Source: Candidatus Saccharimonadota bacterium (GTDB lineage: Bacteria; Patescibacteriota; Gracilibacteria; BD1-5; UBA2023). From it: a stretch of DNA of 32,000 nucleotides. Below are positions 8,424 to 32,000 of the stretch, piece by piece. The DNA lies in assembly GCA_963706795.1 (NCBI GenBank), contig OY970170.1:870001-902000 (forward strand). Direction: 5' to 3'. Below the pieces are notes generated by a model. The model searched no databases, was not told the origin of the DNA, and saw only the letters and a program-made list of their open reading frames with translations. Made by a program: the position numbers and the translations under genes. How positions within the stretch are numbered: position 1 is the first letter of the stretch; each line of letters opens with the position of its first letter.

Positions 8424-9644
8424 ATGCGCGTACCATTTCTCCTCAAACTCATATTCAACCGATACTTTTTTGAAAAGCTCGTAGTATTTATGCTTCTCGG
8501 GATACTTTTGTATACGTTTGAATCCTTCTTGTTCATTTTTTTGATCACTTTTCTCTTTGCGTATCTTTTCTTGGATCTTGCAAAGTGGATTGAAGGGAAG
8601 CTTGGACACCTTCTTAAAAAAATGAAGGCGAGTCCAGTAAAGGCTTTCCTCGCAAAGATCAATCGACTTCCGATCATTGTGACACTCGTATATATTAGCT
8701 TTATTATGTTGGTGGCAACGATTTTTTATAATCTCGTTCCACACCTCATTGAGGAAACAAAGTCGCTCATCAAGGAAGGACCACAAATGATGGGTCGACT
8801 CCAGAATGCTGCGGATAATCTCCAGGGTGCAGTAGATTTTGATCTCGGTCTCGATCAGGTTTTCTCAAGCGTCGTCAATAAAACAGCTGTTGAAACCACG
8901 CTCAATAACGTATTCGAAAACGTAAAAAATATCGGAATCTTCCTCTTTAAGGTGATGATCGCGCTCATTTTGAGCTACGTATTTATCATCGATCGAGAGC
9001 GAATCGAGGGATATTTTGCACTCATTAAAACAGGAAATTTCTCATTTATTTACGATCAGTTTGCGATTATCGCGCAAAAGATTTCTAAGGGATTTGGGCT
9101 CATTTTTAAGGCACAAGCGATCATTGCGCTCGTCAATGCGATCCTCACAGTTATTGGACTTTTGCTCATTAGTTTTTTCCATGGAGGAGAGAGTTTTCCA
9201 TTTATTGCGACGCTCGGGATTACAGTATTTATTTTTGGATTTATTCCGGTACTTGGATTTTTTATCTCATCAGCTCCGATTCTAATTATTGGATTTAATT
9301 ACGGCGGAATCAATGTCACCGCAGCTATACTCATCATGATCGCGATCGTTCATGCAGTAGAAGCGTATTACCTCAATCCAAAAATCGTGTCTTCATATAT
9401 GGAGTTTCCAGTATTTATCACATTTTTGGTCCTCCTGCTTTCTGAACACTTCTTTGGATTTGTAGGACTCCTCATTGGTGTACCGCTTTTCTATATCTTT
9501 GTGGACTCGATCAAGGACTTTGACCTCTATGTAGAGAAGATCAAAAAAATCTCGCATACTATCGATACGGCAAAAACGACCACAAAGGAAGCGATCCACA
9601 AAAATATCCGCCTCTCACGATCTGGAAAACGAAGCGCAGAATAG
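8424..9644 (+). CDS. AI-2E family (UPF0118/PerM-like) membrane transporter
   Basis: 406-aa polytopic ORF. The overall architecture and the FGFIPVLGFFISSAPILIIG segment resemble the family. Assignment made by eye only. Confidence 0.55.
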   Translation: MRVPFLLKLIFNRYFFEKLVVFMLLGILLYTFESFLFIFLITFLFAYLFLDLAKWIEGKLGHLLKKMKASPVKAFLAKINRLPIIVTLVYISFIMLVATIFYNLVPHLIEETKSLIKEGPQMMGRLQNAADNLQGAVDFDLGLDQVFSSVVNKTAVETTLNNVFENVKNIGIFLFKVMIALILSYVFIIDRERIEGYFALIKTGNFSFIYDQFAIIAQKISKGFGLIFKAQAIIALVNAILTVIGLLLISFFHGGESFPFIATLGITVFIFGFIPVLGFFISSAPILIIGFNYGGINVTAAILIMIAIVHAVEAYYLNPKIVSSYMEFPVFITFLVLLLSEHFFGFVGLLIGVPLFYIFVDSIKDFDLYVEKIKKISHTIDTAKTTTKEAIHKNIRLSRSGKRSAE

Positions 9645-17597: not shown

Positions 17598-17684
17598 TTC
17601 TTCCTATATAGTCCCATACGAACGGGATTATCACCAAATACTTCAACCACTCTAGAATTCTAGGGTGTTTCTTCGCATATTTTT

Positions 17685-19442
17685 ATGAAAAAATCATCTA
17701 TATTCGCGCTCGTTCGCGATATGCTTTTGGAGTACAGGCCACTCGCAAAGCATCTTTTCTGGATTGTTCCAGTATCTATCCTGCTCGTGGCAGTGCAGGT
17801 TTCTGAGCCGTATATTTATAAGCTCATCATTGACGAACTTGGTGCGTCTAATTTCGTGCCACACCAAGCAAGTTCCCTCGTTCTGCTCATTGCTTTTTGG
17901 TGAGGATTTGTGTTTGTGTCGATCGCATTTGGATTCGTGCTTGATTATTATTTCCATCGACTGATGCAATCACACTGGGCAGTGGTTATTGGTCGAGGTA
18001 TCCGAGCATTCTTGATGCGACCGTATGCATATCACATCTCGACCAATAACGCCGAGAAGATCAAAATCTTTAATCGCTGAGTGGATTCTATCTACGATGC
18101 AACAAACGAAGTGATACTCAATATGCTCAAGAATTTTCTCTTGTGTATCGGATTTATCGCTCTGTGTTTTATGACGAGTCCAGTTGTAACGATTACACTC
18201 CTGATCGTCATTCCTGTTGTTTTTATCCTGCCAATTCTCCTTGGAACAAAGGCACATGTCGCACAAAAAAGTGCAAGCGATAAATGGGATCAGGTCTATG
18301 CTAGGGCGGGAGACAGCATGCTCAATGTACTCGTTGTAAAACTCTTCACTCGCATAGGATTTGACGTAAATGAGCTACAGTCCCGAGTTCAAACTGCCGC
18401 GCTCGCGCAACGAAAAGTAAGTGTGTACTGGGCATTTCTCGAGGCAGGCGGACAGTCAATCCATTTGATCATATCACTCGCTGTTATGCTCGCGTCGCTC
18501 TATTTCTATTCGCGTGGCATGATTGGACTTGGAGATATTGTGCTTTTTGTTGCAGTTTCTGGGAAGCTCACAGGTCCATTTCTCCAGCTTGAAGGAAGCT
18601 ACCGCAATCTCGTCCGATTCGCAGCTGACTATGCAAAATATCAAGACGTTCTTAATGCAGAATCCGAAGCAGACACGGGAATACATTCATTTCCTGGTAT
18701 TCAGAAATCTCTTACCTTTGATAAGGTTTCCTTCGTCTATCCAGGGACTGAGCGTAAGGTACTCTCAGATGTCGATCTCGAATTCACTCGCGGTACAAAA
18801 ACTGCGCTCGTTGGTCATACTGGATCTGGAAAATCCACACTTGCAAGCCTTCTCTCAAGGTTTTATGATCCTGTTTCTGGTTCCATCCAGGCGGATGGAG
18901 TCGATCTTCGAGAATTCTCACTCGAATCATTCCGTGGTAAAATTGCTGCAGTGTTCCAGGATACTACGCTCTTCAACGATACCCTCACAAACAATCTCGG
19001 ATATGTCCGAGAAGGCATCACGCTCGATCAGATCAAGCAGGCCTGTGCAGATGCGAATGTTCTTGAGTTCATTGAGTCACTTCCTGATGGATTTGATACC
19101 ATGGTCGGTGAACGTGGACTCAAACTCTCCGGTGGTGAAAAACAACGCATCGCAATTGCCCGAGCCATCCTTGCAAATCCAGAGATTCTTATTCTTGACG
19201 AAGCCACTTCCGCTCTCGATGCCAAGACCGAGAAGCTCGTCTCTGATGCTCTCGAGAAGCTCATGGCCGGTCGTACTTCGATCATCATTGCGCACCGACT
19301 CTCGACGATCCAGCATGCCGACAAGATCTATCTCCTCGAGCAGTGAGAAGTGATCGGAAGCGGAAGTCATGCTGAGCTCTATAACTCGTCCTCAGTCTAC
19401 AAAGAAATGGTAGATTATCAGAAGCACGGATTTATAGAATAA
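17685..19442 (+). CDS. ABC transporter, fused permease/ATPase (exporter type), 585 aa
   Basis: ORFs 17685..17903 and 18081..19346 share one frame. TGA at 17901, 18078 and 19344; stop TAA 19440. Walker A GHTGSGKST, LSGGEKQR, ILILDEATSALD, and LEQ[TGA]EVIGSGSH. Confidence 0.9.
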
Positions 19443-20287: not shown

Positions 20288-20314
20288 GGAGCGTCTTCGG
20301 GCGCTCCTTTTTTT
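20288..20314 (+). terminator. Intrinsic terminator with C(UUCG)G tetraloop
   Basis: GGAGCGTC-TTCG-GGCGCTCC followed by T7. Confidence 0.75.
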
Positions 20315-20434
20315 GTGGAGGCATAGATTTCGTACTTGTGGTAATTGACAAAATCTCTCTTTCTTTTACGCTACATTTAGCCAATGTTTGAGGGCACATT
20401 TTTTAATACTCAAATACTACAGAAAGGATTAGAT

Positions 20435-21082: not shown

Positions 21083-21108
21083 AGGGCGTCTTCGGACGCT
21101 CTTTTTTT
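21083..21108 (+). terminator. Intrinsic terminator with C(UUCG)G tetraloop, homologous to 20288..20314
   Basis: AGGGCGTC-TTCG-GACGCTCT followed by a T run. Confidence 0.75.
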
Positions 21109-21193
21109 GTCTCATTTTTGGCATAAACATGATTCGGAAATAGGGAAGAATTTTCTCAAAACCCCGCTTGAAAAAGAGATTGTTTCGCCTATC

Positions 21194-21754
21194 ATGACGC
21201 CCATGACCGACTCCCTTCTTCGATATATTCACGAAATCGAAACCCTCAAAACATCTGGTGCCTACCTCGAGGCGAAAAAGCTCGTTGATTCTCTTCTTTT
21301 AGAATTCACCGATGACTATCGACTCTATGAGGAGCTTGCGGATATTTACCTCTACCAGGGCAATCTCACTGCAGCCGAATCCTCAATGCGCATAGCACAG
21401 GATCTCAATGCGGATTCTGCTACAGGTATGTATTTAATGGGCTATATTGCAGTATCACGTGGTGAATTCGACCGTGGAATAGACCTCCTTGGACGCGCGA
21501 ATTCTAATTTTCCAAATAATCCCGAAATCCTCCGTAATCTCGGTTGGGCATATACGGTAACAGGGAATGGTGATAAGGGTATCTTCCTTCTCAAACGTGC
21601 TCTCAATCTCGCACCTGAGGATGTCCTCATTATGGAAGACCTCTGAGTCGCACTCCTCTCTGATGGACGCGAACTTGCCGAAGGAGAAGAGCTTCTTCGC
21701 AAGGCTGGTAAGGAATACCGCATTCCAGAAATTCGAGCACTCATGCATATCTAA
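21194..21754 (+). CDS. TPR repeat protein, about 186 aa
   Basis: Repeated A/Y/L-patterned helices (YLEAKKLVDSLL, LADIYLYQGNLTAAE, GMYLMGYIAVSRGEFDRGIDLL, LRNLGWAYTVTGNGDKGIFLLKRAL). The frame reads through TGA 21644 to TAA 21752. Start is uncertain (ATG 21194 or 21203); the track TTG at 21107 lies inside the preceding terminator. Confidence 0.6.
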
Positions 21755-21757
21755 TTC

Positions 21758-22951
21758 ATGGGATTCAGCATTCGAACGCTCTCAGAGTATGACCGCTTTT
21801 TTGTGGTAGACATTGGATCTTCACGTGTGAAGGTTCTTTTGTGTGAGCTTGCTAATGGTGAACTCAAAATCCTCGGAAAAGCATCAACGCGCCAGAGTAA
21901 AAAACTCACGATCGATGGCGAGATTGCTGATCTGCGCTGAGTTTCTGAATCCGTTCGCAAGACTGTTCTCAAGCTTTCACAGTCGCATGAAGGCACAGTT
22001 GAGGATATTATATTCTCGATCCAATCAGGTTCGATGCTCACGGATACGCTCTCGATGAACTACGTTCGTGAAAGTGCGAGTACACCACTCGACATGGAGG
22101 AAATCGACCGAATGATCGGCAAAATCGAAAACAAATCCCTCGAGCGTGCGAAGCCTCGGATTCTCTCGCGCGTCTTCGAATCCGAAGGCCAAATGAAACT
22201 CGTTACTACCGCGCTTACTTCGATCGTCATTGATGGCAAAAAAGTAAGTAATCCTATTGGATTTACTGGTACGAATGTCAGTCTCACGGTCTGTAATGTA
22301 TTTTTGCCAGTCAGCACCTTTTTGCTCTATTCGAGTATTGTGCGTGATCTCGACAAAAAGCTCATCTCATTTGTGCCGACTTCGATCGCACTTCCAAAAG
22401 CTCAGGAAGCTTCTCTCGAGCTCTTTGATCCGAATTGTTTTGTAGATATTGGTTCGGCTCGCACGACCGTGGTTCTTGAGAACTATTCAGAAATCCTCGG
22501 ATCGGTGGTGATCCCTTTTGGGTCAGCGCTTTTTGAGCGAATATTTGCCAGCAAAAACCCTACACTCTCACATCTCGAGATCGAAAATCGCATCATCGCA
22601 GCTGATCCCGAAGATGCTTCATACAAACGCTCTCAGGATGAATTTCTCGATCTACTCGTTGAAGCTGTTGTGGTCGCACTTCGTGATATTGCTCCAGATT
22701 TTTTGGTACGAAATGTATATTTCTCGGGAGCGATCAGTACTGAGCTCTTCATTGAGGCTTTCATGGCAATGTTCAAATCAAAGCTCCCACATATGAATCT
22801 CAAGGGAATTCCTCTGATTCCTTCTGCCGAAAATCTTCCTGCCGAATACGGAGTGGCCTATGCGCTCACAAAAACCGCCGAAGAACTCGTTCGTCAAAAA
22901 CGTGATCCGATTGCCCGCATCCTCCGATACGTAATCTACCGATATGAATAG
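21758..22951 (+). CDS. ftsA: Cell division protein FtsA-like actin-family ATPase, 397 aa
   Basis: ORFs 21758..21940 and 22034..22951 share one frame and join via TGA 21938. Phosphate-1 FVVDIGSSRVKVL and phosphate-2 VDIGSARTTV. Confidence 0.7.
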
Positions 22952-24590
22952 AGATGCTCGCCTTGTTATAGACAATCGCCTCGATATTGCCGAAATCATG
23001 GCCATGATTTCGGGTGTTTCTGAGTCGATTGTTACGCTCGAGCTCGTAGGACATACTGCGCTTCATCAGTATTTTTCACTCAAGTTCCTCCTCTCTCGAT
23101 TTCCGAGCAAAAAATTCCAGATTGTTTCGAGCGACAAAGATTTGAGACGAATTGGCGAAGGACTTGGAATTCGATTTTTTTCAAAGAGCGATAATATCGA
23201 GTTCGAAGAATCCTACTCCAAAGAGCATATTCTGCGCCACAACTTTACGTTTTTTGAGTATTTCCTCTACGAAATCCGCAAAGTGGTCTATCGCATGGCC
23301 TACATGTTCGAAAAGAAGCGTTCGCGACATCACACATATAAAAATGCTTCGTTTCTTGCGGATTCGAATGTCTTTTTGCTCTTTGCTGGACTTGTGCTCT
23401 CGATCTCGCTTTTGATATTTATATTCTATTTTGCGGTTTCTAAGACTTACGTCTCGATTACCCCAGACTTTGTAGTCAAGACCGTATCGCAAAATCTCAT
23501 TTTTCAAGAGAGTGATTATCAGTCAGTTCTCGATACGCGTGCGATTGTCCCAGTTCGCAAGGTCGAACACACTGCAAGCATCGATTTTGCCTTTAATGTC
23601 TCGACATTTGATCTCGCGAGTGTGCGTGCTGCAAAGTGATCGGTCGAAGTCTTCAATGAGCTCCCAAATGAGCAAGTTTTCCGTCCGAATACCCGTTTTG
23701 TGACACAGGATGGCCTCGTGTATCGCTCACAAGAATGGATTAAAATCCCAGCAATACGAAGTGATTCTGGAGCGGTAAATATTGGACGAACGACCTCGAC
23801 GCTTATAGCTGATGGCTACGATACCAAGGGCGAACTTATCGGAGTTCGTGGGAATATTCCTGAAGCGACACTGCTTGATATTCCTGGTCTCAAATTTAAT
23901 CGCGACAAGATCTACGCAAAAGTCTCAAAAGGCTTTACTGGTGGACAAAATCCAACGGTACATGTACTGACGGAAGACGAACTCAAAAAATTTAAGGCTA
24001 TTCTCGTTGATAAACTTCGATCTGCCGCGCTCGATGGACTCAAAGACGACCTCGCAAAATCCAATGCCGAATCTGGCAAAAATTTTGATATCCTCGATAT
24101 TCCTGAAAATATCCGCTACTCTGAGCCGGTGATTGAGATTGCAAATGGCGTAAAGGTGGGTGACAAGATCACGGATGTTACGCTCAAGGGTAATCTCAAG
24201 GTAACAACCTACCTCTTTGATCGAGCAGCTGCACTGAGTATTCTTCGTAATCTTATGAATGAGAAGCTCCTCTACGGTACCGAAAAGCTCCATGAGATAC
24301 TCAATGATTCTCTCAAGATCACCAATATTATCAATCGCACCGAGACTCCGCAATTTGCGCTCAAGGGTACAACTGATCTCTCTGCGACGATCTCCTATAA
24401 TTTTGAGGATTCGAGCAATAATCTCACAAAAAAGCTCAAAAATCTCATTGCCGGTCTCTCTATCGATGGCGCAACTTCGGTGCTGCTCAATGACAACAAT
24501 ATTGCAAAGGTAAAGATCCGCCTTTCACCATTCTGGCTGACGCATGTATCGTCGAGTCCTGATAACATCGACTTTATTATTGAGAAGTAA
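22944..24590 (+). CDS. Hypothetical bitopic membrane protein, 548 aa, translationally coupled to ftsA
   Basis: ATG overlaps the ftsA stop by 8 nt (ATGAATAG). ORFs 22944..23639 and 23700..24590 share one frame and join via TGA 23637. Single TM VFLLFAGLVLSISLLIFIFYFAV, with a large C-terminal domain. Confidence 0.6.
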
Positions 24591-24594
24591 CCTC

Positions 24595-25572
24595 ATGTAC
24601 TTCCTCGCTTTTGAAACCTCGTGTGACGATACTTCGGTTGCCCTCTTTGATGGTCCGAAGCTCATTACAATGAGTACAAAAGGACAACTCAAAGAACACA
24701 ATGAGACACAATGAGTCGTCCCTGAAGTTGCTGCCCGCCTCCATGCAAACGCGATTTTTGAAGTACTCGAAGAAGTTCTCCAAAAATGAAATGTCGAACT
24801 CTCTGATATCGAATTCATAGCCTGTACCAGACAGCCAGGGCTTCTCCCATCTCTTTTGGTAGGGCGCACGGTCGCAAAGACACTTGCTCATACTCTTGGT
24901 AAAGAAGTGCTCTGGATTGATCACATTGAATCCCATATTTTTGCAAATCTCCTCGAACGAGATCTCTCAGACATAGCATTTCCAATCGTCTGCCTCACGG
25001 TTTCTGGCGGGCACAATGAGCTCTATTTCTGGAAGAGTCTCTTTGAATTAGAGCTCCTTGGTCAAACTCGCGACGATGCAGCAGGGGAGGCCTTCGACAA
25101 GATCTCAAAAGCCATGGGAATGAGTTTCCCAGGCGGACCTGAGATTGCAAAGCTTGCGAGCGAGTGGCAGAGACAATATGCTGGCATGTTCCCAATCGCA
25201 CTACTCGATGAGGGGAGTCTCGATTTTTCGTTTTCTGGACTCAAAAGCGCAGTCAAGCGAGAGATTGATGTACGGATAGCACTTCGATCAGAGCTGACGC
25301 TTGATGACAAGCGAGAGATTGCCTACGAGTTTGAACAGGCAGTGGTTCGCACGCTTACGGCAAAGCTCTTTCGGGCTGCAAAATCCAAAGGGGTAAATAC
25401 TGTTTTGCTTGCAGGATGAGTCAGTGCGAATGATGTGCTTCGGTCGCAGATCGCACTCGAGGCGCAAAAACTCGGAATGCATTTTGTTTCTCCTGTGAGT
25501 AAACTCTATAGCATGGATAATGCGGCCATGGTTGGAATGCGTGCCTACTACGAATGGAAGCGCTTTCATTAA
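24595..25572 (+). CDS. tsaD: tRNA N6-adenosine threonylcarbamoyltransferase TsaD (Kae1/Gcp), 325 aa
   Basis: MYFLAFETSCDDTSVAL; Q[TGA]VVPEVAARLH (conserved GGVVPE); SGGHNELY; LAG[TGA]VSAN. TGA at 24712, 24787 and 25417; TAA stop at 25570. Confidence 0.9.
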
Positions 25573-25683
25573 AAAACTCGTCCAATTTAAAGTTCATTAA
25601 AGTTTAGAAGGCTCCTGCGAGCAAATTGCGTTTGAAATACATAAAAAACCGTATACTCTACCGCGTTATTTCTAACTCACATT

Positions 25684-26646
25684 ATGGAAAAGAAACAAAA
25701 CCAATCAGAAGGAATGGGATCAGATATGCAGAATCGCTGCGCGTCATACTGCCGCTCTTCGTTCTCTTCACTCATGATCGCTATCATGATCCTCAATCTC
25801 ATCGCTACTGCTGGACTCGCTTACGCGATGTATGACTACAAGACTTCTGGTATTAAGGCTGCCGAAGCAAGCGCTAAAACAGCTATGCTCCAAGTCGAAT
25901 ACGATCGCTCAGGAGGCAAAGAAATCTACGACCTCATTACTCAGGTACAAAAACTCTCTGCTCCACAAACAAAGCAGCAGATCGAAGCAGCTATTAAGCA
26001 ATTAGGTGGTACTACTGCTCCTACAACTACAGATGGTTCGGCTACTACACCTCCATCTACCTCCTCTACTGATCTCACAGCTGACCAGTATGCTGCAATC
26101 ATGAAGGATTCATATGCAGAAGGAAACAAGAGCGCCAAGATTACTCTCGTCGAATATTCTGACCTCGAGTGTCCGTACTGTATTATCCAATACAAGAACA
26201 AGACGATTTCAAAGCTTCAAGAAAAATACGGAGACAAGGTCAATGTCATCTACAAGCCTCTCAATCTCGCCCGTCATCCAGGTGCAGATCAGAAGGGTAT
26301 GGCTTCGCTCTGTGTAGCACAGATCGCCGGTGCTGAAAAATATTCTAAGTTCTACAATGCTATCCTCGATCGTTCAAATGAGCGTGGACCAGTATTCCCA
26401 CTCGATAATATCAAGGCTCTCGCCAAAGAAATCGGTGGTATTGATGCTACAAAGTTCGCCGCATGTTACGATGGTCAGAAGACTAAGTCTGTCTATGAGT
26501 CATACACTGCCGAAGCTCTCGCCCGTGGTGTTGAAGGAACTCCTACAATCATGGTCCTCAATAACGAAACAAAGAAATTTGAACTCGTGAAGGGTGCAGC
26601 TGATGTGAGCTCATTCTACCCAGTCGTTGATCGCCTCATGAAATAA
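25684..26646 (+). CDS. DsbA-family thiol:disulfide oxidoreductase, membrane anchored
   Basis: N-terminal TM, a T/S/P-rich linker, and a thioredoxin fold with the CPYC active site (LVEYSDLECPYCIIQY) and GTPTIMV cis-Pro loop region. Confidence 0.75.
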   Translation: MEKKQNQSEGMGSDMQNRCASYCRSSFSSLMIAIMILNLIATAGLAYAMYDYKTSGIKAAEASAKTAMLQVEYDRSGGKEIYDLITQVQKLSAPQTKQQIEAAIKQLGGTTAPTTTDGSATTPPSTSSTDLTADQYAAIMKDSYAEGNKSAKITLVEYSDLECPYCIIQYKNKTISKLQEKYGDKVNVIYKPLNLARHPGADQKGMASLCVAQIAGAEKYSKFYNAILDRSNERGPVFPLDNIKALAKEIGGIDATKFAACYDGQKTKSVYESYTAEALARGVEGTPTIMVLNNETKKFELVKGAADVSSFYPVVDRLMK

Positions 26647-26661
26647 TCCATTTTGGATAGT

Positions 26662-26696
26662 CCTCCCAAGCTCGCAAGAGCGAAGGAGGGTTTTTT
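26662..26696 (+). terminator. Terminator hairpin after the DsbA-like gene; left inverted repeat of the thyA cassette
   Basis: CCTCC-CAA-GCTC-GCAA-GAGC-GAA-GGAGG plus T6. It is 26/29 identical to the reverse complement of 27799..27828. Confidence 0.7.
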
Positions 26697-26713
26697 AATG
26701 GAAATCGGTACAG

Positions 26714-26740
26714 TTGACATTACGTATTATTACGTATAGT
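26714..26740 (+). promoter_or_regulatory. thyA promoter (TTGACA-15-TATAGT) with two ATTACGTAT direct repeats in the spacer
   Basis: -35 at 26714-26719; -10 at 26735-26740. ATTACGTAT occurs at 26719-26727 and 26729-26737 (10-bp phasing), and each copy contains the palindrome TACGTA. Confidence 0.45.
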
Positions 26741-26834
26741 TCATGACAACTATACCGATTCGGTGGTTTCGATTATTCGGGGCGGATAGCATGTTCTTTA
26801 AATTCAACGATTCTTTTTTCTTTAGGAGGCCATC

Positions 26835-27767
26835 ATGGGTCAACCAACCGCAGAAGTTCAAAAACTGATCGATGCAGCAAAAGCGAGTGAGTATGCAGGC
26901 TATTACGCACATCCAGAATCATGGGGGGATGAGAATCATTTTATTCTTAGTCCTGATAATGAATCATTTGTGGATATGGAATACTGCAAGCTTCAAACGC
27001 ATGTTCTCAATACCGGTACATATAAAGCTGATCGTACTGGCACGGGCACGCTGTCTGTGTTTGGCTATCAGATGCGCCTTGATCTGGACAAAGGTTTCCC
27101 TCTGCTGACGACCAAAAAAGTGCATCTGAAATCTATTGTCCACGAGCTCATTTGGTTTTTGGCGGGTTCTACCAATATCAAATACCTCAAGGATAACGGC
27201 GTCTCCATCTGGGATGAATGGGCTGATGAAAATGGTGATCTGGGGCCGGTCTATGGTTCTCAGTGGCGCAATTGGCCAACACCAGGCGGTGGACATATCG
27301 ATCAAATCAAACAAGTGATCGACCAAATCCGCAATAATCCTGATTCGCGCCGTCTGATAGTTTCAGCATGGAATGTTGCTGATATTCCACAAATGAAACT
27401 GCCACCATGTCATGCGTTATTTCAGTTTTACGTCGCAGATGGCAAGTTGTCGTGTCAGCTGTATCAACGCAGTGCTGACGTTTTCCTGGGTGTACCTTTT
27501 AATATTGCATCCTATGCTCTGCTGACGATGATGATTGCAAAAATCTGCAATCTCGAACTCGGCGATTTTATCTGGAACGGTGGCGATGTGCATCTGTATG
27601 TCAATCATCTTGAACAGGTGGCAACACAGCTGGATCGTCTGCCGATTCGGGCACCAAAAATGATCATCAAAGATCGTGGTCAAGATATTTTTGGTTTTCA
27701 ATTCTCCGACTTCATCCTCGAAGACTACGATCCTCATCCTGCCATCAAGGCGACAGTGGCGGTCTGA
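26835..27767 (+). CDS. thyA: Thymidylate synthase ThyA (proteobacterial type) with 47-aa N-terminal extension; ends on TGA
   Basis: [84 protein letters not shown], and C-terminus [10 protein letters not shown]. Strong SD AGGAGG. The stop codon is TGA 27765-27767; under table 25 the frame stays open to TAA 27987-27989. Confidence 0.9.
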
Positions 27768-27792
27768 AAGAAATGAAAGAATTGTTGTTTTT

Positions 27793-27835
27793 ACAAAACC
27801 CTCCTTTGCTCTTGTGAGCTTCGGAGGGCTTTTTT
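27793..27835. terminator. Bidirectional terminator between thyA and rlmE; right inverted repeat of the thyA cassette
   Basis: ACAAAA-CCCTCC-TTT-GCTC-TTGT-GAGC-TTC-GGAGGG-CTTTTTT. Confidence 0.7.
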
Positions 27836-27846
27836 ATGGTTTATTC

Positions 27847-28470
27847 CTAGTCTTTTTTACCGAGACAGAGGAAATATTCTTCAAAGCTACGATCGCGGCA
27901 GGCTTCTGGTTTGACGCGTTTGAGGTTTTTGTAGCGCTGCATGATGGGAGTGATGAGCTCTTGGATGTCTTCACCAACAAATACTTTAAGCAGGAGATTG
28001 CCGCCTGGCTTCAGCCATTTGTGGGTAAATTCGAGGATGGCAATATTGAGCTCGATTGAGCGATATTGGTCAACTCCCGTGAGCCCCGTCGTATTTGGTG
28101 CGATATCCGAAGTCACTACATCAAATTGCTCAATCTCGAGCTTCTGACAAAATTGTTCAATCTTTGGCGCATCAAAAATATCCCCCTGAAGTACGCGGAT
28201 ATTTTGCTGTCCAAATGGCTTGATCTTTTGGATATCAACTCCAGCGACGACTCCTTCTGGTCCAATAATTTTGGAGATCACTTGGAGGAAGCTACCAGGC
28301 GCGGATGCTACATCGAGAACTTTCATTCCAGGCTCGATGATCTTAAAACGATCCTGGATTTCTATGAGCTTGAATGCGCTGCGTGCTCGGTATCCGAGCT
28401 TCTTCGCTTCAAAAAACCACTTGTCTTGGACAACATATTGTCCTGTACCTTTTTTCTTTTTCGTTGACAC
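27847..28470 (-). CDS. rlmE: 23S rRNA (uridine2552-2'-O)-methyltransferase RlmE/FtsJ
   Basis: 207 aa with a GTG start. Contains RSAFKLIEI, the SAM motif VLDVASAPGSFLQV, and DIAPNTTG. Confidence 0.85.
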   Translation of the reverse strand: MSTKKKKGTGQYVVQDKWFFEAKKLGYRARSAFKLIEIQDRFKIIEPGMKVLDVASAPGSFLQVISKIIGPEGVVAGVDIQKIKPFGQQNIRVLQGDIFDAPKIEQFCQKLEIEQFDVVTSDIAPNTTGLTGVDQYRSIELNIAILEFTHKWLKPGGNLLLKVFVGEDIQELITPIMQRYKNLKRVKPEACRDRSFEEYFLCLGKKD

Positions 28471-28523
28471 GTATCGGAGATTAGTTACTATACCCTGTCT
28501 TTCCCTTACTGTAGCGCAAAGCT

Positions 28524-29501
28524 ATGAAACATCAAGCCGTCCTCGATCAAATCGCACATCACTGGCAAGAAAGTCAGACGATTTTGCTGACTGGAGCCTC
28601 AAATCTCGATGGAGATGCGCTGGGGTGTTTGCTCGCACTCTATGATTTTGGTGTTGCACAGGGCAAAAAAATGATCATCGCAAATGAGAAGCCACTCTCG
28701 AGTTTGTACGGTTTTTTAGAAGTCGCTGATCGTGTAGTGATCAAGCTTCCAGAGCTTACATATGATCTCATTATCATCTGTGACACCGGATCATTCGAAA
28801 TGCTCGGATCCATCTATACTGACAACAAAGCTCTTTTTGAAGCGACAAAAAAGATCAATATCGACCATCATTCGTCATGTTATGGTGATGTGTGCTGGTC
28901 GACTTGTAGCTACGAAAATACTTCTGCTACCATGATGGTCGCAAATTTTATCGAATACACTGCCGGTGTCGAAGCCATTACCAAGGACATGGCGACATAC
29001 TTGCTTCTTGGGGTTTACTACGATACGGAGTGTTTTCGTAATGCAAATACGACGCCACATGGACTGAGGTTTGCTGCGCATATGCTCGAACTTTTTGCAG
29101 ATCATAATTGCCTCATCCGCAATCTCTATCAGAGCACAGATCCAAACTATATTGGACTCTATGGAGAGGTCCTTGCCTCGATCCAGATTATTTTGGATGG
29201 AAGGGGAGTCATCGGTCTCGCGACGCAGGATATGTTTAAGCGCCGAAATATCTCATGTGACTGTCTTGGGAACGAGCTCGTCAATGACTATCTGAGATCC
29301 GTTCGTGCAAAATTTGTGATCTTCCTCAAAGAAACTCCCGAGGGCGAGTATCGCATCTCCCTGAGATCCAAGGACGAAGCCTATGACATGCGGGCTCTTG
29401 CAGGTATCTTTGGAGGCGGTGGGCATGCTATGGCCAGCGGAGCATGTACCAAAAAACCACTCCCAGAAATCATCCAAACAATCGAAGCATTTTTTAAGTA
29501 G
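28524..29501 (+). CDS. nrnA: DHH/DHHA1 family phosphoesterase (NrnA-like oligoribonuclease/pAp phosphatase)
   Basis: Motifs NLDGDALGC, IICDTGS, NIDHH and GGGGHAMASG. Confidence 0.8.
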   Translation: MKHQAVLDQIAHHWQESQTILLTGASNLDGDALGCLLALYDFGVAQGKKMIIANEKPLSSLYGFLEVADRVVIKLPELTYDLIIICDTGSFEMLGSIYTDNKALFEATKKINIDHHSSCYGDVCWSTCSYENTSATMMVANFIEYTAGVEAITKDMATYLLLGVYYDTECFRNANTTPHGLRFAAHMLELFADHNCLIRNLYQSTDPNYIGLYGEVLASIQIILDGRGVIGLATQDMFKRRNISCDCLGNELVNDYLRSVRAKFVIFLKETPEGEYRISLRSKDEAYDMRALAGIFGGGGHAMASGACTKKPLPEIIQTIEAFFK

Positions 29502-29574
29502 TGCCATGCGATTACTGATACGCTTCCAGAATGAAAAAAACCGCTTGTTTTAGAAGAAGGTATCCAGAGAGCTA

Positions 29575-29611
29575 ATAAAAAAATCTCTACCAATTTGGTA
29601 GAGATTTTTTT
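29575..29611. terminator. Bidirectional terminator (nrnA-like gene / PhnA-like gene)
   Basis: A-run, then TCTCTACCA-ATT-TGGTAGAGA, then T-run. Confidence 0.7.
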
Positions 29612-29831
29612 ATTTCAGGGGCTTCTTTTTTAGGAAGCAGGTCTTGAGGACGAGAGTGGTTTTTCCATCTTTACATTCGATTGCTTCCTCATCTCAGGTG
29701 AGTCGGATGTTCTTAAATACGGTTCCAATTTTGAGAGTCGTATTAGAACCTTTTAATTTGAGATCCTTGATGAGCTGCACTGAGTCACCATCTTCGAGAA
29801 GAGCACCATTGCTGTCTACAGTTGTATTCAT
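29610..29831 (-). CDS. PhnA/YjdM C-terminal-domain protein, 73 aa
   Basis: Not in the ORF track because of the in-frame TGA at 29694-29696. Translation [45 protein letters not shown][G][27 protein letters not shown] matches the PhnA C-terminal domain pattern (DSNGN.L.DGDSV...KDLKVKG....LK.GT.V.NIRL). It has no N-terminal zinc ribbon. Confidence 0.65.
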
Positions 29832-29885
29832 AAGAGAGGAGATAGATATTGCATCTGATTGTGGTTAGATATATCACAAAAGCAA

Positions 29886-29926
29886 AATAAATCCCCCAAA
29901 GTCCATAGGACGAAGGGGGATTTATT
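29886..29926 (-). terminator. Intrinsic terminator of rplL
   Basis: 12-bp perfect stem AATAAATCCCCC / GGGGGATTTATT with a 17-nt loop. The minus-strand tail is TTTGCTTTTG. Confidence 0.6.
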
Positions 29927-29942
29927 ATTTGGTGAATCCCAA

Positions 29943-30323
29943 TTACTTGAGTTCAACAGTTGCACCCTGCTCAGTGAGCTGTGCAGCGAGCTTTTCTCCA
30001 TCAGCGCGAGAAACATTTTCCTTGATGTTTCCTCCGTTGTCTGCGAGAGCCTTAGCTTCAGCAAGACCGAGACCAGTAATTTCGCGAATAACCTTGATTA
30101 CAGCGATCTTAGCTCCTCCTGCGCTTGTCATAACAACATTAACAGTTGTCTTCTCTTCGTCAGCGGCTGCTGCTCCGGCTCCTGCTGCTGCTACTGGAGC
30201 TGCTGCAGAAACTCCGAATTTCTCTTCCATTGCTGAAACGAGATCTGCGAGTTCAACGATTGTGAGGGTCTCAACGAGATCCATGATCTTCTGCGCGTTT
30301 GCGCTGAGTGTAACTTCTGACAT
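29943..30323 (-). CDS. rplL: 50S ribosomal protein L7/L12
   Basis: MSEVTLSANAQKIMDLVETLTIVELADLVSAMEEKFGV, an Ala-rich hinge, then the C-terminal domain KIAVIKVIREITGLGLAEAKALAD. The track uses an upstream TTG (30329). Confidence 0.9.
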   Translation of the reverse strand: MSEVTLSANAQKIMDLVETLTIVELADLVSAMEEKFGVSAAAPVAAAGAGAAAADEEKTTVNVVMTSAGGAKIAVIKVIREITGLGLAEAKALADNGGNIKENVSRADGEKLAAQLTEQGATVELK

Positions 30324-30402
30324 AGACAAAAAGTGAAATAAGTAACGATTTGGCGAGGAATCTCCTCGTCAGAGCCTTCCCGAAGGAAAACTCTAGACGA
30401 AA

Positions 30403-31089
30403 TTATTCAGCAGCGGGAGCTTCAACTGGAGCTTCTGCAGGAGTTTCAGCTACAGCTTCTGGAGCTGGTGCCTCTGCTTCTACGGCTGGAGTTTCGGCAA
30501 CTACTTCGGCTACTGGAGCTGGAGTAGGAGCGGCAACTGGTGCAGCTGCCATGGCCTTTGTGAGGTCACCAACAGTCGTACCACCCTTTGTTCCGATATC
30601 AGTCTTTGCAGCATCGAAGAATCGTGCAAGTGCAGAGAGAGGAGACATCATAGAACCGAGGAGCTTCGCGAGGAGAACTTCACGTGAAGGAAGACTTGCG
30701 AGCTTGGTAGTTTCTTCAGCCCCGAGAACGCGACCGTCGATGTAACCACCCGAGAACTTAATCTTCTGTTCCTTTGCGAATTCCTTTGCGTATCGTCCAA
30801 CTACACCGAGTGGAGCGATCTTGTCTTCTTTACAGATGAGAGTCGCAACCTGACCTGGAAGTGAATCAATGTCGAGATCGATATTGAAAACATTCTTGAA
30901 TGCAATGCGAACGAGAGTCTTCTTTGCAATCATGTATGTTCCACCGAGTGCGCGGATTTCGTTCTTCATCTTAGAAACTTCGAGAACCGTGAGTTTCTGG
31001 TTTGTAGTGAAAGCAACGCTCTGTGCGTCCTTGAAGTGACCTTCGAGAACTGCGAGAATCGCAACTTTCTGAGCTTTTGATACAGCCAT
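30403..31089 (-). CDS. rplJ: 50S ribosomal protein L10 with about 50-aa Ala/Pro/Glu-rich C-terminal extension
   Basis: 228 aa. The N-terminal 170 aa resemble L10 (AVSKAQKVAILAVLEGHFKDAQSVAFT...LVRIAFKN), and it lies directly upstream of rplL. The tail is AAAPVAAPTPAPVAEVVAETPAVEAEAPAPEAVAETPAEAPVEAPAAE. Confidence 0.85.
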   Translation of the reverse strand: MAVSKAQKVAILAVLEGHFKDAQSVAFTTNQKLTVLEVSKMKNEIRALGGTYMIAKKTLVRIAFKNVFNIDLDIDSLPGQVATLICKEDKIAPLGVVGRYAKEFAKEQKIKFSGGYIDGRVLGAEETTKLASLPSREVLLAKLLGSMMSPLSALARFFDAAKTDIGTKGGTTVGDLTKAMAAAPVAAPTPAPVAEVVAETPAVEAEAPAPEAVAETPAEAPVEAPAAE

Positions 31090-31247
31090 GAAATGGATAT
31101 TAGATATTGGATCCTTCGGTCAGTCAGAACAAAAAAATTCGTGACATCGCACGAACAAGAAATCCCATACTGGGAAAATTCAATAGAATTGCTCTTGTCT
31201 CGGGAGGGCTTACGGATGCCTCCTGTCTGCGACTGACTTAGAAAGTC
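31090..31247 (-). promoter_or_regulatory. rplJ 5' leader, candidate L10-leader autoregulatory RNA with internal attenuator hairpin
   Basis: Minus-strand promoter TTGACT (rc of 31276-31281)-15-TATACT (rc of 31255-31260). The leader contains long-range pairing GUCAGUC/GACUGAC and the hairpin GGAGG-CAUCCGUAAGC-CCUCC. UUCGUG-CGAUGU-CACGAA followed by U7 (31131-31155) lies about 45 nt before the ATG. Confidence 0.45.
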
Positions 31248-31273
31248 GGGGATTAGTATAGAGAAATATTTAT

Positions 31274-31292
31274 GAAGTCAAATTTTGACTTC
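31274..31292. promoter_or_regulatory. 9-1-9 perfect palindrome GAAGTCAAA-T-TTTGACTTC providing back-to-back TTGACT -35 boxes
   Basis: TTGACT on the plus strand (31285-31290) faces gene 31345. TTGACT on the minus strand (31276-31281) faces rplJ. Confidence 0.45.
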
Positions 31293-31344
31293 TAGCCAGC
31301 TTGGGCGATACTTATGACGTGCTTTTAACCAAAGGGAGGATAGC

Positions 31345-31743
31345 ATGGAACAATGGAATATAGGAATTGTTTTCACTGTAGTACTCTGTTTCGGATTGAT
31401 CGTTGCAGCCTTGTTTCTGAATAAGGCAAAAATAACATTTATCTACCGGCCTGGTGCAAATTTTTTACCAAGCTTTAAGACCTCTCCATCTGCTGATGTC
31501 GTTGTTCAGATATATTCTTATGAAATATCTCAGCTTCAGGAAGCGATGGAAAAACAGAATAAAGATGTTTTTTCTGTTGAAATGTTGGTTCAAAAATGTG
31601 GCATGACGGAGCTCTTTGCACGTCACTTTATTCAGAAGCTATTAGATACTGGCATGCTTCGTTGTGATGCCACTTCTGATGGCAAAAATACGATGTATTC
31701 ATTCGTGATGTCTGATTTTCAGTCGCTACGGATTGCAGCCTAA
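31345..31743 (+). CDS. Hypothetical protein, 132 aa: N-terminal TM plus possible winged-helix-like C-terminal region
   Basis: SD AAAGGGAGGA; TM IGIVFTVVLCFGLIVAALFL; C-terminal segment FSVEMLVQKCGMTELFARHFIQKLLDTGML. TAA stop; no internal TGA. Confidence 0.5.
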   Translation: MEQWNIGIVFTVVLCFGLIVAALFLNKAKITFIYRPGANFLPSFKTSPSADVVVQIYSYEISQLQEAMEKQNKDVFSVEMLVQKCGMTELFARHFIQKLLDTGMLRCDATSDGKNTMYSFVMSDFQSLRIAA

Positions 31744-31755
31744 AAGGAGGGAATT

Positions 31756-31786
31756 AAAAAAGTCGTATTTCGGTACGGCTTTTTTA
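31756..31786 (+). terminator. Intrinsic terminator of 31345..31743
   Basis: AAAAA-AGTCGTA-TTTCGG-TACGGCT-TTTTT, with one G-U pair. Confidence 0.55.
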
Positions 31787-31897
31787 ATTGCTTATAGACA
31801 AGCGTAGAGGATTCTGTTTGACTTTTTGCATATCATGATCATATTGTCGGGGTTGTATCATACGACATCAAACAAACATCAACTCAAGGAGAATTAC

Positions 31898-32000
31898 ATG
31901 AATCAATTCATCGCTTTTCTCGTAAATATCTGGTTGGAACAAAAGATAGCACTCAGCTGTCTCGGAATCTCTGTGGTATTTGTCACAGCATGTGTCGCAT
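31898..32000 (+). CDS. Hypothetical protein, N-terminal fragment (runs off window)
   Basis: ATG 31898 preceded by CAAGGAGAATTAC (SD) and an upstream TTGACT box. Translation begins MNQFIAFLVNIWLEQKIALSCLGISVVFVTACVA (hydrophobic). Confidence 0.4.
   Translation, partial: MNQFIAFLVNIWLEQKIALSCLGISVVFVTACVA

Follow-up and report, generated by a model that had tools for sequence, protein, structure and literature searches.

The stretch analysed here, 32,000 nucleotides of contig OY970170.1 (GenBank assembly GCA_963706795.1, positions 870,001 to 902,000) and called the window below, contains a thymidylate synthase gene, thyA, that lies between two nearly identical hairpin sequences in inverted orientation. 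A first-pass annotation made from the letters alone had described the arrangement as a thyA cassette, among other possibilities a transposase-less mobile insertion cassette ending in the hairpins. Coordinates are positions within this 32 kb window, and L-numbers denote loci from relatives or from scans. The gene is placed between two convergent core genes of the host, a dsbA-like gene and rlmE, and the locus is composed as follows:

25684-26646, + strand: dsbA-like thioredoxin-fold gene (Pfam Thioredoxin_4/DSBA), a core host gene with a TAA stop.
26659-26698, + strand: left arm of the inverted repeat, with the family hairpin at 26662-26690 and a U-run at 26691-26696; predicted intrinsic terminator of the dsbA-like gene, whose mRNA contains the purine-rich strand.
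26703-26760, no strand assigned: 25-nt imperfect palindrome (arms 26703-26727 and 26736-26760, 80% complementary) holding the -35-like TTGACA at 26714-26719 and TATAGT at 26735-26740.
26824-26829, + strand: Shine-Dalgarno sequence AGGAGG, read directly, 5 nt before the thyA ATG.
26835-27767, + strand: thyA, intact, 310 aa (Pfam Thymidylat_synt PF00303, 3e-123, profile positions 2-266 of 266).
26835-26975, + strand: N-terminal extension of ThyA, residues 1-47, without homologues; the canonical core starts from M48 (26976).
27765-27986, + strand: stretch that would be read through if TGA is glycine, 74 extra residues, across the right hairpin and antisense into rlmE, to a TAA at 27984-27986.
27791-27830, − strand: right arm of the inverted repeat, with the family hairpin at 27799-27828; predicted bidirectional intrinsic terminator of rlmE (− strand), whose mRNA contains the purine-rich strand, and of thyA (+ strand).
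27847-28470, − strand: rlmE, encoding an FtsJ-like 23S rRNA methyltransferase (Pfam FtsJ, 1e-49), a core host gene with a TAG stop.

The left hairpin copy (26662-26690) reads CCTCCCAAGCTCGCAAGAGCGAAGGAGGG, and the reverse complement of the right copy (27799-27828) reads CCCTCCGAAGCTCACAAGAGCAAAGGAGGG, exactly the sequences and coordinates given in the first-pass annotation. A repeat search of the region 25500-29000 returned this pair as the longest inverted repeat. Its arms (26659-26698 and 27791-27830) are 40 nt long and 88% complementary, with 35 of 40 bases matching, and lie 1092 nt apart with thyA as the only gene between them. A degenerate 28-mer covering both copies matched the 32 kb window twice, at these two sites, while none of 100 shuffled sequences matched. 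The two copies are true inverted repeats, as had been proposed: over the 28-nt core they show 3 mismatches when compared inverted and 10 when compared directly, and among the 10 positions without self-complementarity (the tetraloop and both 3-nt sides of the internal loop) 7 agree in inverted and 0 in direct orientation (binomial P ~0.0035).

The two copies share one fold: an outer stem of 6 bp and an inner stem of 4 bp, separated by a symmetric 3x3 internal loop and capped by a tetraloop. A U-run follows 3' of each copy on every strand on which a gene ends. The free energies were -16.3 kcal/mol for the left copy on the + strand, -18.6 kcal/mol for the right copy on the + strand and -22.7 kcal/mol for the right copy on the − strand; z-scores of the folds ranged from -2.7 to -6.3, and the trailing runs were UUUUUU, CUUUUUU and UUUUGU. 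The hairpins are found 15 nt from the dsbA TAA, 31 nt from the thyA TGA and 18 nt from the rlmE TAG. A stable GC-rich stem-loop with a U-run just past a stop codon is the sequence signature of an intrinsic terminator, and the earlier view that both copies are terminator-like, standing after the stops of the dsbA-like gene, thyA and rlmE, is consistent with these data. With an A-run on its upstream side and a U-run on its downstream side, the right copy would be able to end transcripts from both strands.

Marks of a mobile element were not detected at the locus. The target-site duplications that the first-pass annotation had proposed to look for did not emerge outside the inverted repeats, where the flanks TCCATTTTGGAT and TTTTTATGGTTT share only T-runs at every plausible boundary. 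A profile search of the window genes and of the relatives' neighbours revealed no recombinase among the syntenic neighbours examined; the earlier statement that no transposase accompanies thyA therefore stands, and applies to integrases as well. A second inverted pair, 26793-26816 and 27776-27799 (24 nt, 79%), was considered as inner cassette ends and dismissed as noise, as many AT-rich pairs of such quality occur in the same region.

The source genome is a Gracilibacterium that decodes UGA as glycine (genetic code 25). The TsaD gene is fragmented under code 11 and whole (24514-25569) with TGA as a sense codon, and lists of open reading frames (ORFs) made under code 11 split TsaD, an ABC transporter and others (24514-25569, 17664-19442, 22935-24590). 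In-frame TGA codons, written as #, stand at conserved glycines of TsaD (..ETQ#VVPE.. and ..LLAG#VSAN..) and of the ABC ATPase (..LLEQ#EVIGSG..). The number of long ORFs more than doubles under code 25, TGA accounts for ~4% of the glycine codons in eight reference host genes of the window, and the RlmE homologues are labelled Gracilibacteria or Altimarinota. The Gracilibacterium of 1.34 Mbp reported previously (Sieber et al., 2019, PMC6851277) is a different genome, and that report is silent on thyA.

In this host, thyA ends in TGA (27765-27767), exactly at the C-terminus common to its homologues in a residue-by-residue alignment. A second TGA follows two codons on, no in-frame TAA or TAG occurs until 74 codons on, and the code 25 ORF covering thyA runs from 26826 to 27986. 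Codon usage differs from that of the eight host genes as well: leucine is encoded by CTG in 55% of cases (7% in the host genes) and by CTC in 21% (64%), glycine by GGA in 4% (42%) and arginine by CGA in 0% (26%), and AAA usage is also strongly different. The GC content of 45.9% and the GC3 of 43.9% are the same as in the host. Among 5.8 billion proteins the closest ThyA sequences (264 aa) were 76-77% identical and came from Methylophilaceae, Undibacterium and Sulfuricella (Betaproteobacteria) and Adhaeribacter (Bacteroidota); no ThyA above 77% identity was present in this set, and no thyA was found in close relatives of the host. A search for a donor or a second cassette gave a best ThyA of only 69% in a phage collection (protein search), only ~70% thyA matches with flanks lacking any match in plasmids (DNA search), and a best viral ThyA of 73%, without the N-terminal extension, in IMG/VR (protein search), where the hairpin pattern itself had zero matches. 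Because of its TGA stop in a host that reads TGA as glycine, its atypical codons, its absence from relatives and its position in a variable slot, thyA can be identified by sequence as a foreign gene inserted from a standard-code donor and not as a product of vertical inheritance.

As far as can be judged from an alignment of homologues, the encoded enzyme is complete: the catalytic PCH (Cys) and RSAD motifs and the ...KATVAV C-terminal end are conserved. In its present host thyA is nevertheless presumably poorly functional or non-functional, since reading TGA as glycine would yield either a 74-residue tail or non-stop transcripts ending at the hairpin. If thyA transcripts end at the right hairpin, there would be no stop codon on them at all. 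The 47-residue N-terminal extension, which a strong AGGAGG precedes, when searched alone had 0 matches among 1.84 billion representative proteins, and ThyA homologues all lack it; the extension may have arisen at integration.

Upstream of thyA, the first-pass annotation had placed a promoter and a leader. The elements TTGACA and TATAGT are indeed present, but they form a weak candidate with a 15-nt spacer that is not listed by a scan for spacers of 16-18 nt. The leader could be assigned to no Rfam family; a scan of 25400-29000 for a riboswitch or leader gave only chance-level miRNA and histone matches, and the fold z-score of 26691-26840 was -2.7. The palindrome at 26703-26760, which holds both elements, is a possible promoter/operator of thyA, and may represent an operator or else a relic of the donor or of the integration.

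The core genes on both sides of thyA are conserved in relatives. Window positions 21151-26630 and 27853-31282 are collinear with L005 and align at 75-84% nt identity, and L001, L006 and L041 are similar. Synteny of the dsbA-like gene with L005/L006 reaches window 26630-26648 (74-75% nt identity), and that of the rlmE side with L005, L001 and L041 begins at window 27826-27854. The slot between the two genes holds the following in the individual relatives, given with their relation to the window:

L005 (metagenome-assembled genome (MAG) JBMOJK01 at NCBI; RlmE clusters with that of L001, DNA 75-78% to the window): only a decayed piece of a second dsbA copy (empty).
L038/L039 (RlmE 74% to the window): 220 nt of non-coding DNA (empty).
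L006 (apparently the same lineage as L001/L002, RlmE 92% to the window, judging by overlapping contig ends): an intact second dsbA copy.
L004 (RlmE 75% to the window): two pilin-like genes.
L040 (RlmE 67% to the window): two Lcl_C-domain proteins.
L042 (RlmE 87% to the window): a PAS-domain gene on the rlmE strand.
L041 (RlmE 93% to the window, the closest): a different simple terminator, then GC-rich sequence.

An empty site, which the first-pass annotation had expected synteny to disclose, thus exists in L005 and in L038, with the same flanks. By these alignments, the dsbA-like/rlmE slot is an ordinary hot spot for gene gain, and cargo other than thyA is flanked by unrelated terminators.

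Three further observations were made in these comparisons. The GC-rich sequence of L041 (752-851), read toward rlmE, ends in TGA shortly before the terminator, with just 100 nt to judge; it is possibly another standard-code foreign gene in the same slot. The region from the dCMP deaminase to the L10 operon also varies among relatives (L001 2622-4767, L005 14120-15072, window 31293-32000), and in L001 the variable region after the dCMP deaminase starts directly after another hairpin of the family. Finally, the last ~20 nt of the window dsbA-like gene (26626-26646) are, in a comparison made by eye, closer to the decayed second dsbA copy of L005 (9083-9103) than to the end of the first copy of L005, which suggests that the window gene may be a fusion of two paralogues through deletion.

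The hairpin is also present in relatives that have no thyA. L005 has a single hairpin, CCCTCCAAGCTCGTAAGAGGAAAGGAGGGGG, at 9108-9134, 7 nt from the rlmE stop, with its purine-rich strand on the dsbA strand like the left copy of the window. Preceding it is ..TTGATCGACCGATGAAATAAT.., which is similar to the final codons of the window dsbA, ..TTGATCGCCTCATGAAATAAT.., and as position, left flank and orientation are the same, the left window copy is the positional counterpart of this hairpin. The contigs L001/L002 on the rlmE side and L006 on the dsbA side end inside one hairpin and overlap; joined and read in the rlmE sense, the sequence is AAAAATCCCCCTTCGTAGCTCGTAGAGCGAAGCAGGGGGATTTTT. This joined hairpin is a single copy with the orientation of the right window copy, its purine strand being on the rlmE side. 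Each window copy, compared by sequence, is matched by a single-copy counterpart of its own orientation in a genome without thyA.

The breaks inside the hairpin concern three Logan contigs from three samples (L001 8620-8652, L002 4146-4178 and L006 9780-9808; overlap 13-15 nt), and could be due to polymorphism, hairpin flipping or coverage loss. We did not accept them as proof of a flip-flop polymorphism, as the break points are 2 nt apart between samples and coverage drop-outs are possible.

Hairpins of the same family were also observed at unrelated loci, namely at L015, from the L005 MAG, where an EF-P-like gene converges on a 157-aa gene, and at L001 2622-2649 directly after the dCMP deaminase. 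The second of these came from a less strict pattern that fixed the stem and allowed any interior sequence. An exact-pattern scan of 185,579 GTDB species genomes, representatives that did not include the source genome, identified 31 loci in very different phyla, with 2 matches in the L005 MAG. The free positions were filled non-randomly and yielded the family consensus CCUCC-GAA-GCUC-NNNN-GAGC-GAA-GGAGG, and the recurrence of the 28-mer in unrelated phyla (L007-L037 of the GTDB scan) was far above chance. The 28-mer was located within a 16S rRNA gene on the rRNA strand (L030, 279-306) and, on the opposite strand, within 23S rRNA genes (L018, 3742-3769, and L032), an RNase P RNA gene (L012, 3937-3964) and a group I intron (L026, 6937-6964). 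Several other matches are terminators in Bacteroidota (including L019, L029 and L033) and Patescibacteria. The 28-mer also occurs downstream of tRNAs, and two Acidobacteriota genomes together contain five copies with conserved flanks.

A scan of metagenomes gave no match for the window-specific hairpin pattern and 4 unrelated loci for a broader one, with no long ORFs requiring code 25 that would link them to the lineage. Further copies of the thyA unit were absent from the protein, phage, plasmid and viral collections, all other hairpin copies seen were single, and no hairpin was found next to any close thyA relative. Compared over 28 positions, the two window copies showed 2 and 3 differences from L015, 3 and 4 from L001 2622, and 1 and 2 from a Prosthecobacter copy. 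With 3 of 28 mismatches between them, they are no closer to each other than to other members of the family (1-4 of 28).

These results change the initial picture of the locus. Of the cassette, the foreign insertion in a variable slot is retained, but not the hairpins as its terminal repeats. Neither a mobile insertion cassette with hairpin ends nor the second proposal, an insertion targeted to the hairpin, is supported: the hairpin is single at the same site in the thyA-less L005 and L001/L006, it occurs at unrelated loci and in many unrelated genomes as well, and the similarity of the two window copies does not exceed that of other pairs from the family. The first-pass annotation had itself named two findings that would speak against an insertion cassette: a generic terminator-like hairpin, which is largely what we observed, and vertical inheritance of thyA, which we did not observe.

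The window offers a further pair of similar terminators. Two adjacent paralogues on the same strand, 28% identical, are each followed by a near-identical UUCG-loop terminator (20288-20317 and 21083-21112), and 16 of the 20 stem-loop bases of the two are identical. As judged from these predicted elements, terminators in the window genome evidently stay similar while the genes diverge, which would provide a parallel to the thyA hairpins.

The explanation towards which we lean, with moderate confidence, is that the two hairpins are ordinary intrinsic terminators of one lineage-wide family and that the foreign thyA landed between or beside them. The comparisons described above establish, at the level of sequence, that the hairpin family is present without thyA and that the slot is variable. 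The lineage would favour one hairpin as terminator at several loci, with a CCUCC/GGAGG stem, a 3x3 purine internal loop, a GCUC/GAGC stem, a tetraloop and a U-run. Each of the convergent core genes, the dsbA-like gene and rlmE, would have a copy so oriented that the gene's mRNA contains the purine-rich strand, and since the two genes converge, their sense-oriented copies would be inverted relative to each other. The thyA DNA would have landed in the harmless space between two terminators, or beside one with the second gained separately, and thyA would use the opposite strand of the rlmE terminator as its own. We infer that both hairpins predate the thyA insertion.

Some observations weigh against this explanation. 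All available relatives are at least 19% diverged in DNA, too far for a base-by-base reconstruction of the insertion. No relative has two hairpins flanking anything; the state with two ancestral terminators is thus derived from the opposite orientations in L005 and L001/L006, and these fit flipping of the hairpin interior equally as well as loss of one ancestral copy. The rule that the purine strand lies in the sense strand fails at L001 2622-2649. Moreover, most members of the family were found with the window-derived pattern, in which only seven free positions are variable, so that their low mismatch counts are partly built in, while L001 2622, found with a free interior, gives the same similarity picture as the pattern-derived members. 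Two copies 1.1 kb apart around the sole foreign gene would also be unexpected by chance if the family is rare in the genome beyond the 32 kb.

Integration could instead have copied the resident hairpin in inverted orientation, by fold-back priming or template switching during the break repair that joined the thyA fragment, with the second hairpin as a by-product. We consider this unlikely. It would account for the empty site L005 having one hairpin where the window has two, for the interior positions matching inverted and not directly, and for a repeat that extends a few bases past the stem, with AG on one side and TTTT.TAA on the other; these extra bases are, however, mostly the U-run required by any terminator. 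The arms differ at 5 of 40 positions although thyA keeps its unadapted stop and foreign codons, they are no closer mutually than to family members elsewhere, and the single hairpin of L001/L006 has the orientation of the right copy, so that this orientation exists without thyA. Small inversions of hairpin loops are known in chloroplast non-coding DNA, and a similar event would be needed if the terminator was duplicated directly, or if thyA brought its own terminator of the same type, and recombination or template switching between the stem arms of one hairpin then inverted its interior. Although the orthologous single hairpin is oppositely oriented in L005 and L001/L006, no relative is close enough for the flip to be visible as one event. 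Past the two window copies, the + strand sequences are alike in direct orientation (GGAGGG-TTTTTTAATGG and GGAGGGCTTTTTTATGG), but the likeness consists of the U-run and 4-5 bases. Bacteroidota terminators with the same 28-mer (L019, L029, L033), together with the presence of Bacteroidota among the best ThyA matches, would favour a terminator that came with thyA, while the hairpin is absent from the viral contigs of IMG/VR and does not accompany any close thyA relative. On balance, this route appears still less likely than inverted copying.

The hairpin family might alternatively mark safe-harbour slots in these reduced genomes, as a sequence prone to recombination or related to uptake, with foreign genes captured beside it and interior flipping or inverted copying occurring during capture. 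We regard this as improbable; if true, it would jointly explain the opposite orientations in L005 and L001/L006, the contig breaks of three independent assemblies and the variable regions beside other family copies. A chimera, in which assembly or binning brought in the thyA segment from a standard-code organism of the same sample, is very improbable. It would agree with a TGA stop and foreign codons in a genome of code 25, with a gene unique to one contig and with similar hairpins in other phyla that could seed false joins, but two false joins would be required within one contig of 1,267,896 bp, the hairpins at both junctions belong to the family of the host lineage and sit on host flanks, and the GC and GC3 of thyA equal those of the host. 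Least probable of all is a non-autonomous mobile cassette with inverted hairpin ends recognised by an enzyme encoded elsewhere, similar to repetitive extragenic palindromic (REP)/RAYT, IS200/IS605 or integron systems. While inverted hairpin ends do bracket a single gene without recombinase and the family is dispersed in relatives, the duplication expected at the target site is lacking, and the unit is found nowhere else, neither among the 5.8 billion proteins (no ThyA >77%) nor in the phage, plasmid and viral collections. In addition, the empty site and other loci have the hairpin singly, as an ordinary terminator where two genes converge; other cargo of the slot has different terminators; and the hairpin falls short of the length of an attC site and lacks the GTTRRRY core.

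If the hairpins are ordinary terminators, as we favour, the locus calls for caution, as near-identical inverted hairpins around a foreign gene resemble the ends of a mobile element, yet may be sense-oriented terminators of convergent genes. The main interest is modest and lies in the unadapted standard-code gene in a genome with UGA as glycine and in the oddly widespread hairpin. An intact standard-code thyA, still ended by TGA, is fixed in at least one assembled genome of such a bacterium and provides a concrete case for how genes cross the genetic-code barrier and fare just after arrival. The CCUCC-GAA-GCUC-loop-GAGC-GAA-GGAGG hairpin occurs in unrelated phyla, where it is seen in terminators, rRNA and RNase P RNA, and may merit study as an RNA building block.

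Among known systems, the hairpins resemble the intrinsic terminators of convergent genes, being GC-rich hairpins with a U-run right after the stops, and relatives have one such hairpin between the same genes. They differ in a stem broken by a conserved symmetric 3x3 purine loop of the GAA/GAA type, and it is unusual for a terminator that one 28-mer should recur at several loci and also in other phyla; termination at the window hairpins is itself a prediction. The nearest mobile analogue of the pair, by comparison of form, is the REP/RAYT system. REP sequences, bacterial interspersed mosaic elements (BIMEs) and REPINs of Proteobacteria, mobilised by RAYT, are likewise imperfect palindromes of ~30 nt that are intergenic at gene 3' ends, often between convergent genes, and form inverted pairs. 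REP pairs are, however, tens of bases apart, whereas the window hairpins are 1.1 kb apart around a gene, and the copy number of the window family is apparently low (2 in 32 kb; 2 exact-pattern matches in the L005 MAG). No RAYT (Y1 transposase) gene was detected among the neighbours examined, within 32 kb of a 1.27 Mb genome. Identical hairpins within rRNA and RNase P RNA of other phyla suggest a favoured fold and not a spreading element.

Integron cassettes are, like thyA, single genes without their own recombinase that are bounded by hairpin-forming imperfect repeats. Their attC sites are direct, 57-141 nt long and provided with a GTTRRRY core, and the cassettes lie beside intI and are usually promoterless, none of which is true of the thyA locus: its hairpins measure 29-30 nt, are inverted and have no core, and its flanks are housekeeping genes collinear with relatives. 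Transposons and miniature inverted-repeat transposable elements (MITEs) are not matched either, given that there is no target-site duplication and no other copy of the unit in the collections searched. Standard-code DNA also meets a code 25 host in the case of code 11-compatible phages predicted to infect Gracilibacteria, which avoid in-frame TGA and stack different stops at their gene ends (Liu et al., 2023, PMC10746230). Such phages are, by analogy, a possible route for genes such as thyA, with the difference that the thyA TGA is followed by another TGA and by no TAA or TAG for 74 codons, and that the best viral ThyA reaches only 73%. The locus also shares features with the acquired gene islets found at variable slots, which have conserved collinear flanks, differing cargo and atypical cargo codons. 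Like such horizontally transferred genes, thyA is absent at the same site in relatives with conserved flanks and carries foreign coding signals, but, unlike them, it has crossed a genetic-code boundary and keeps a stop that its new host reads as glycine.

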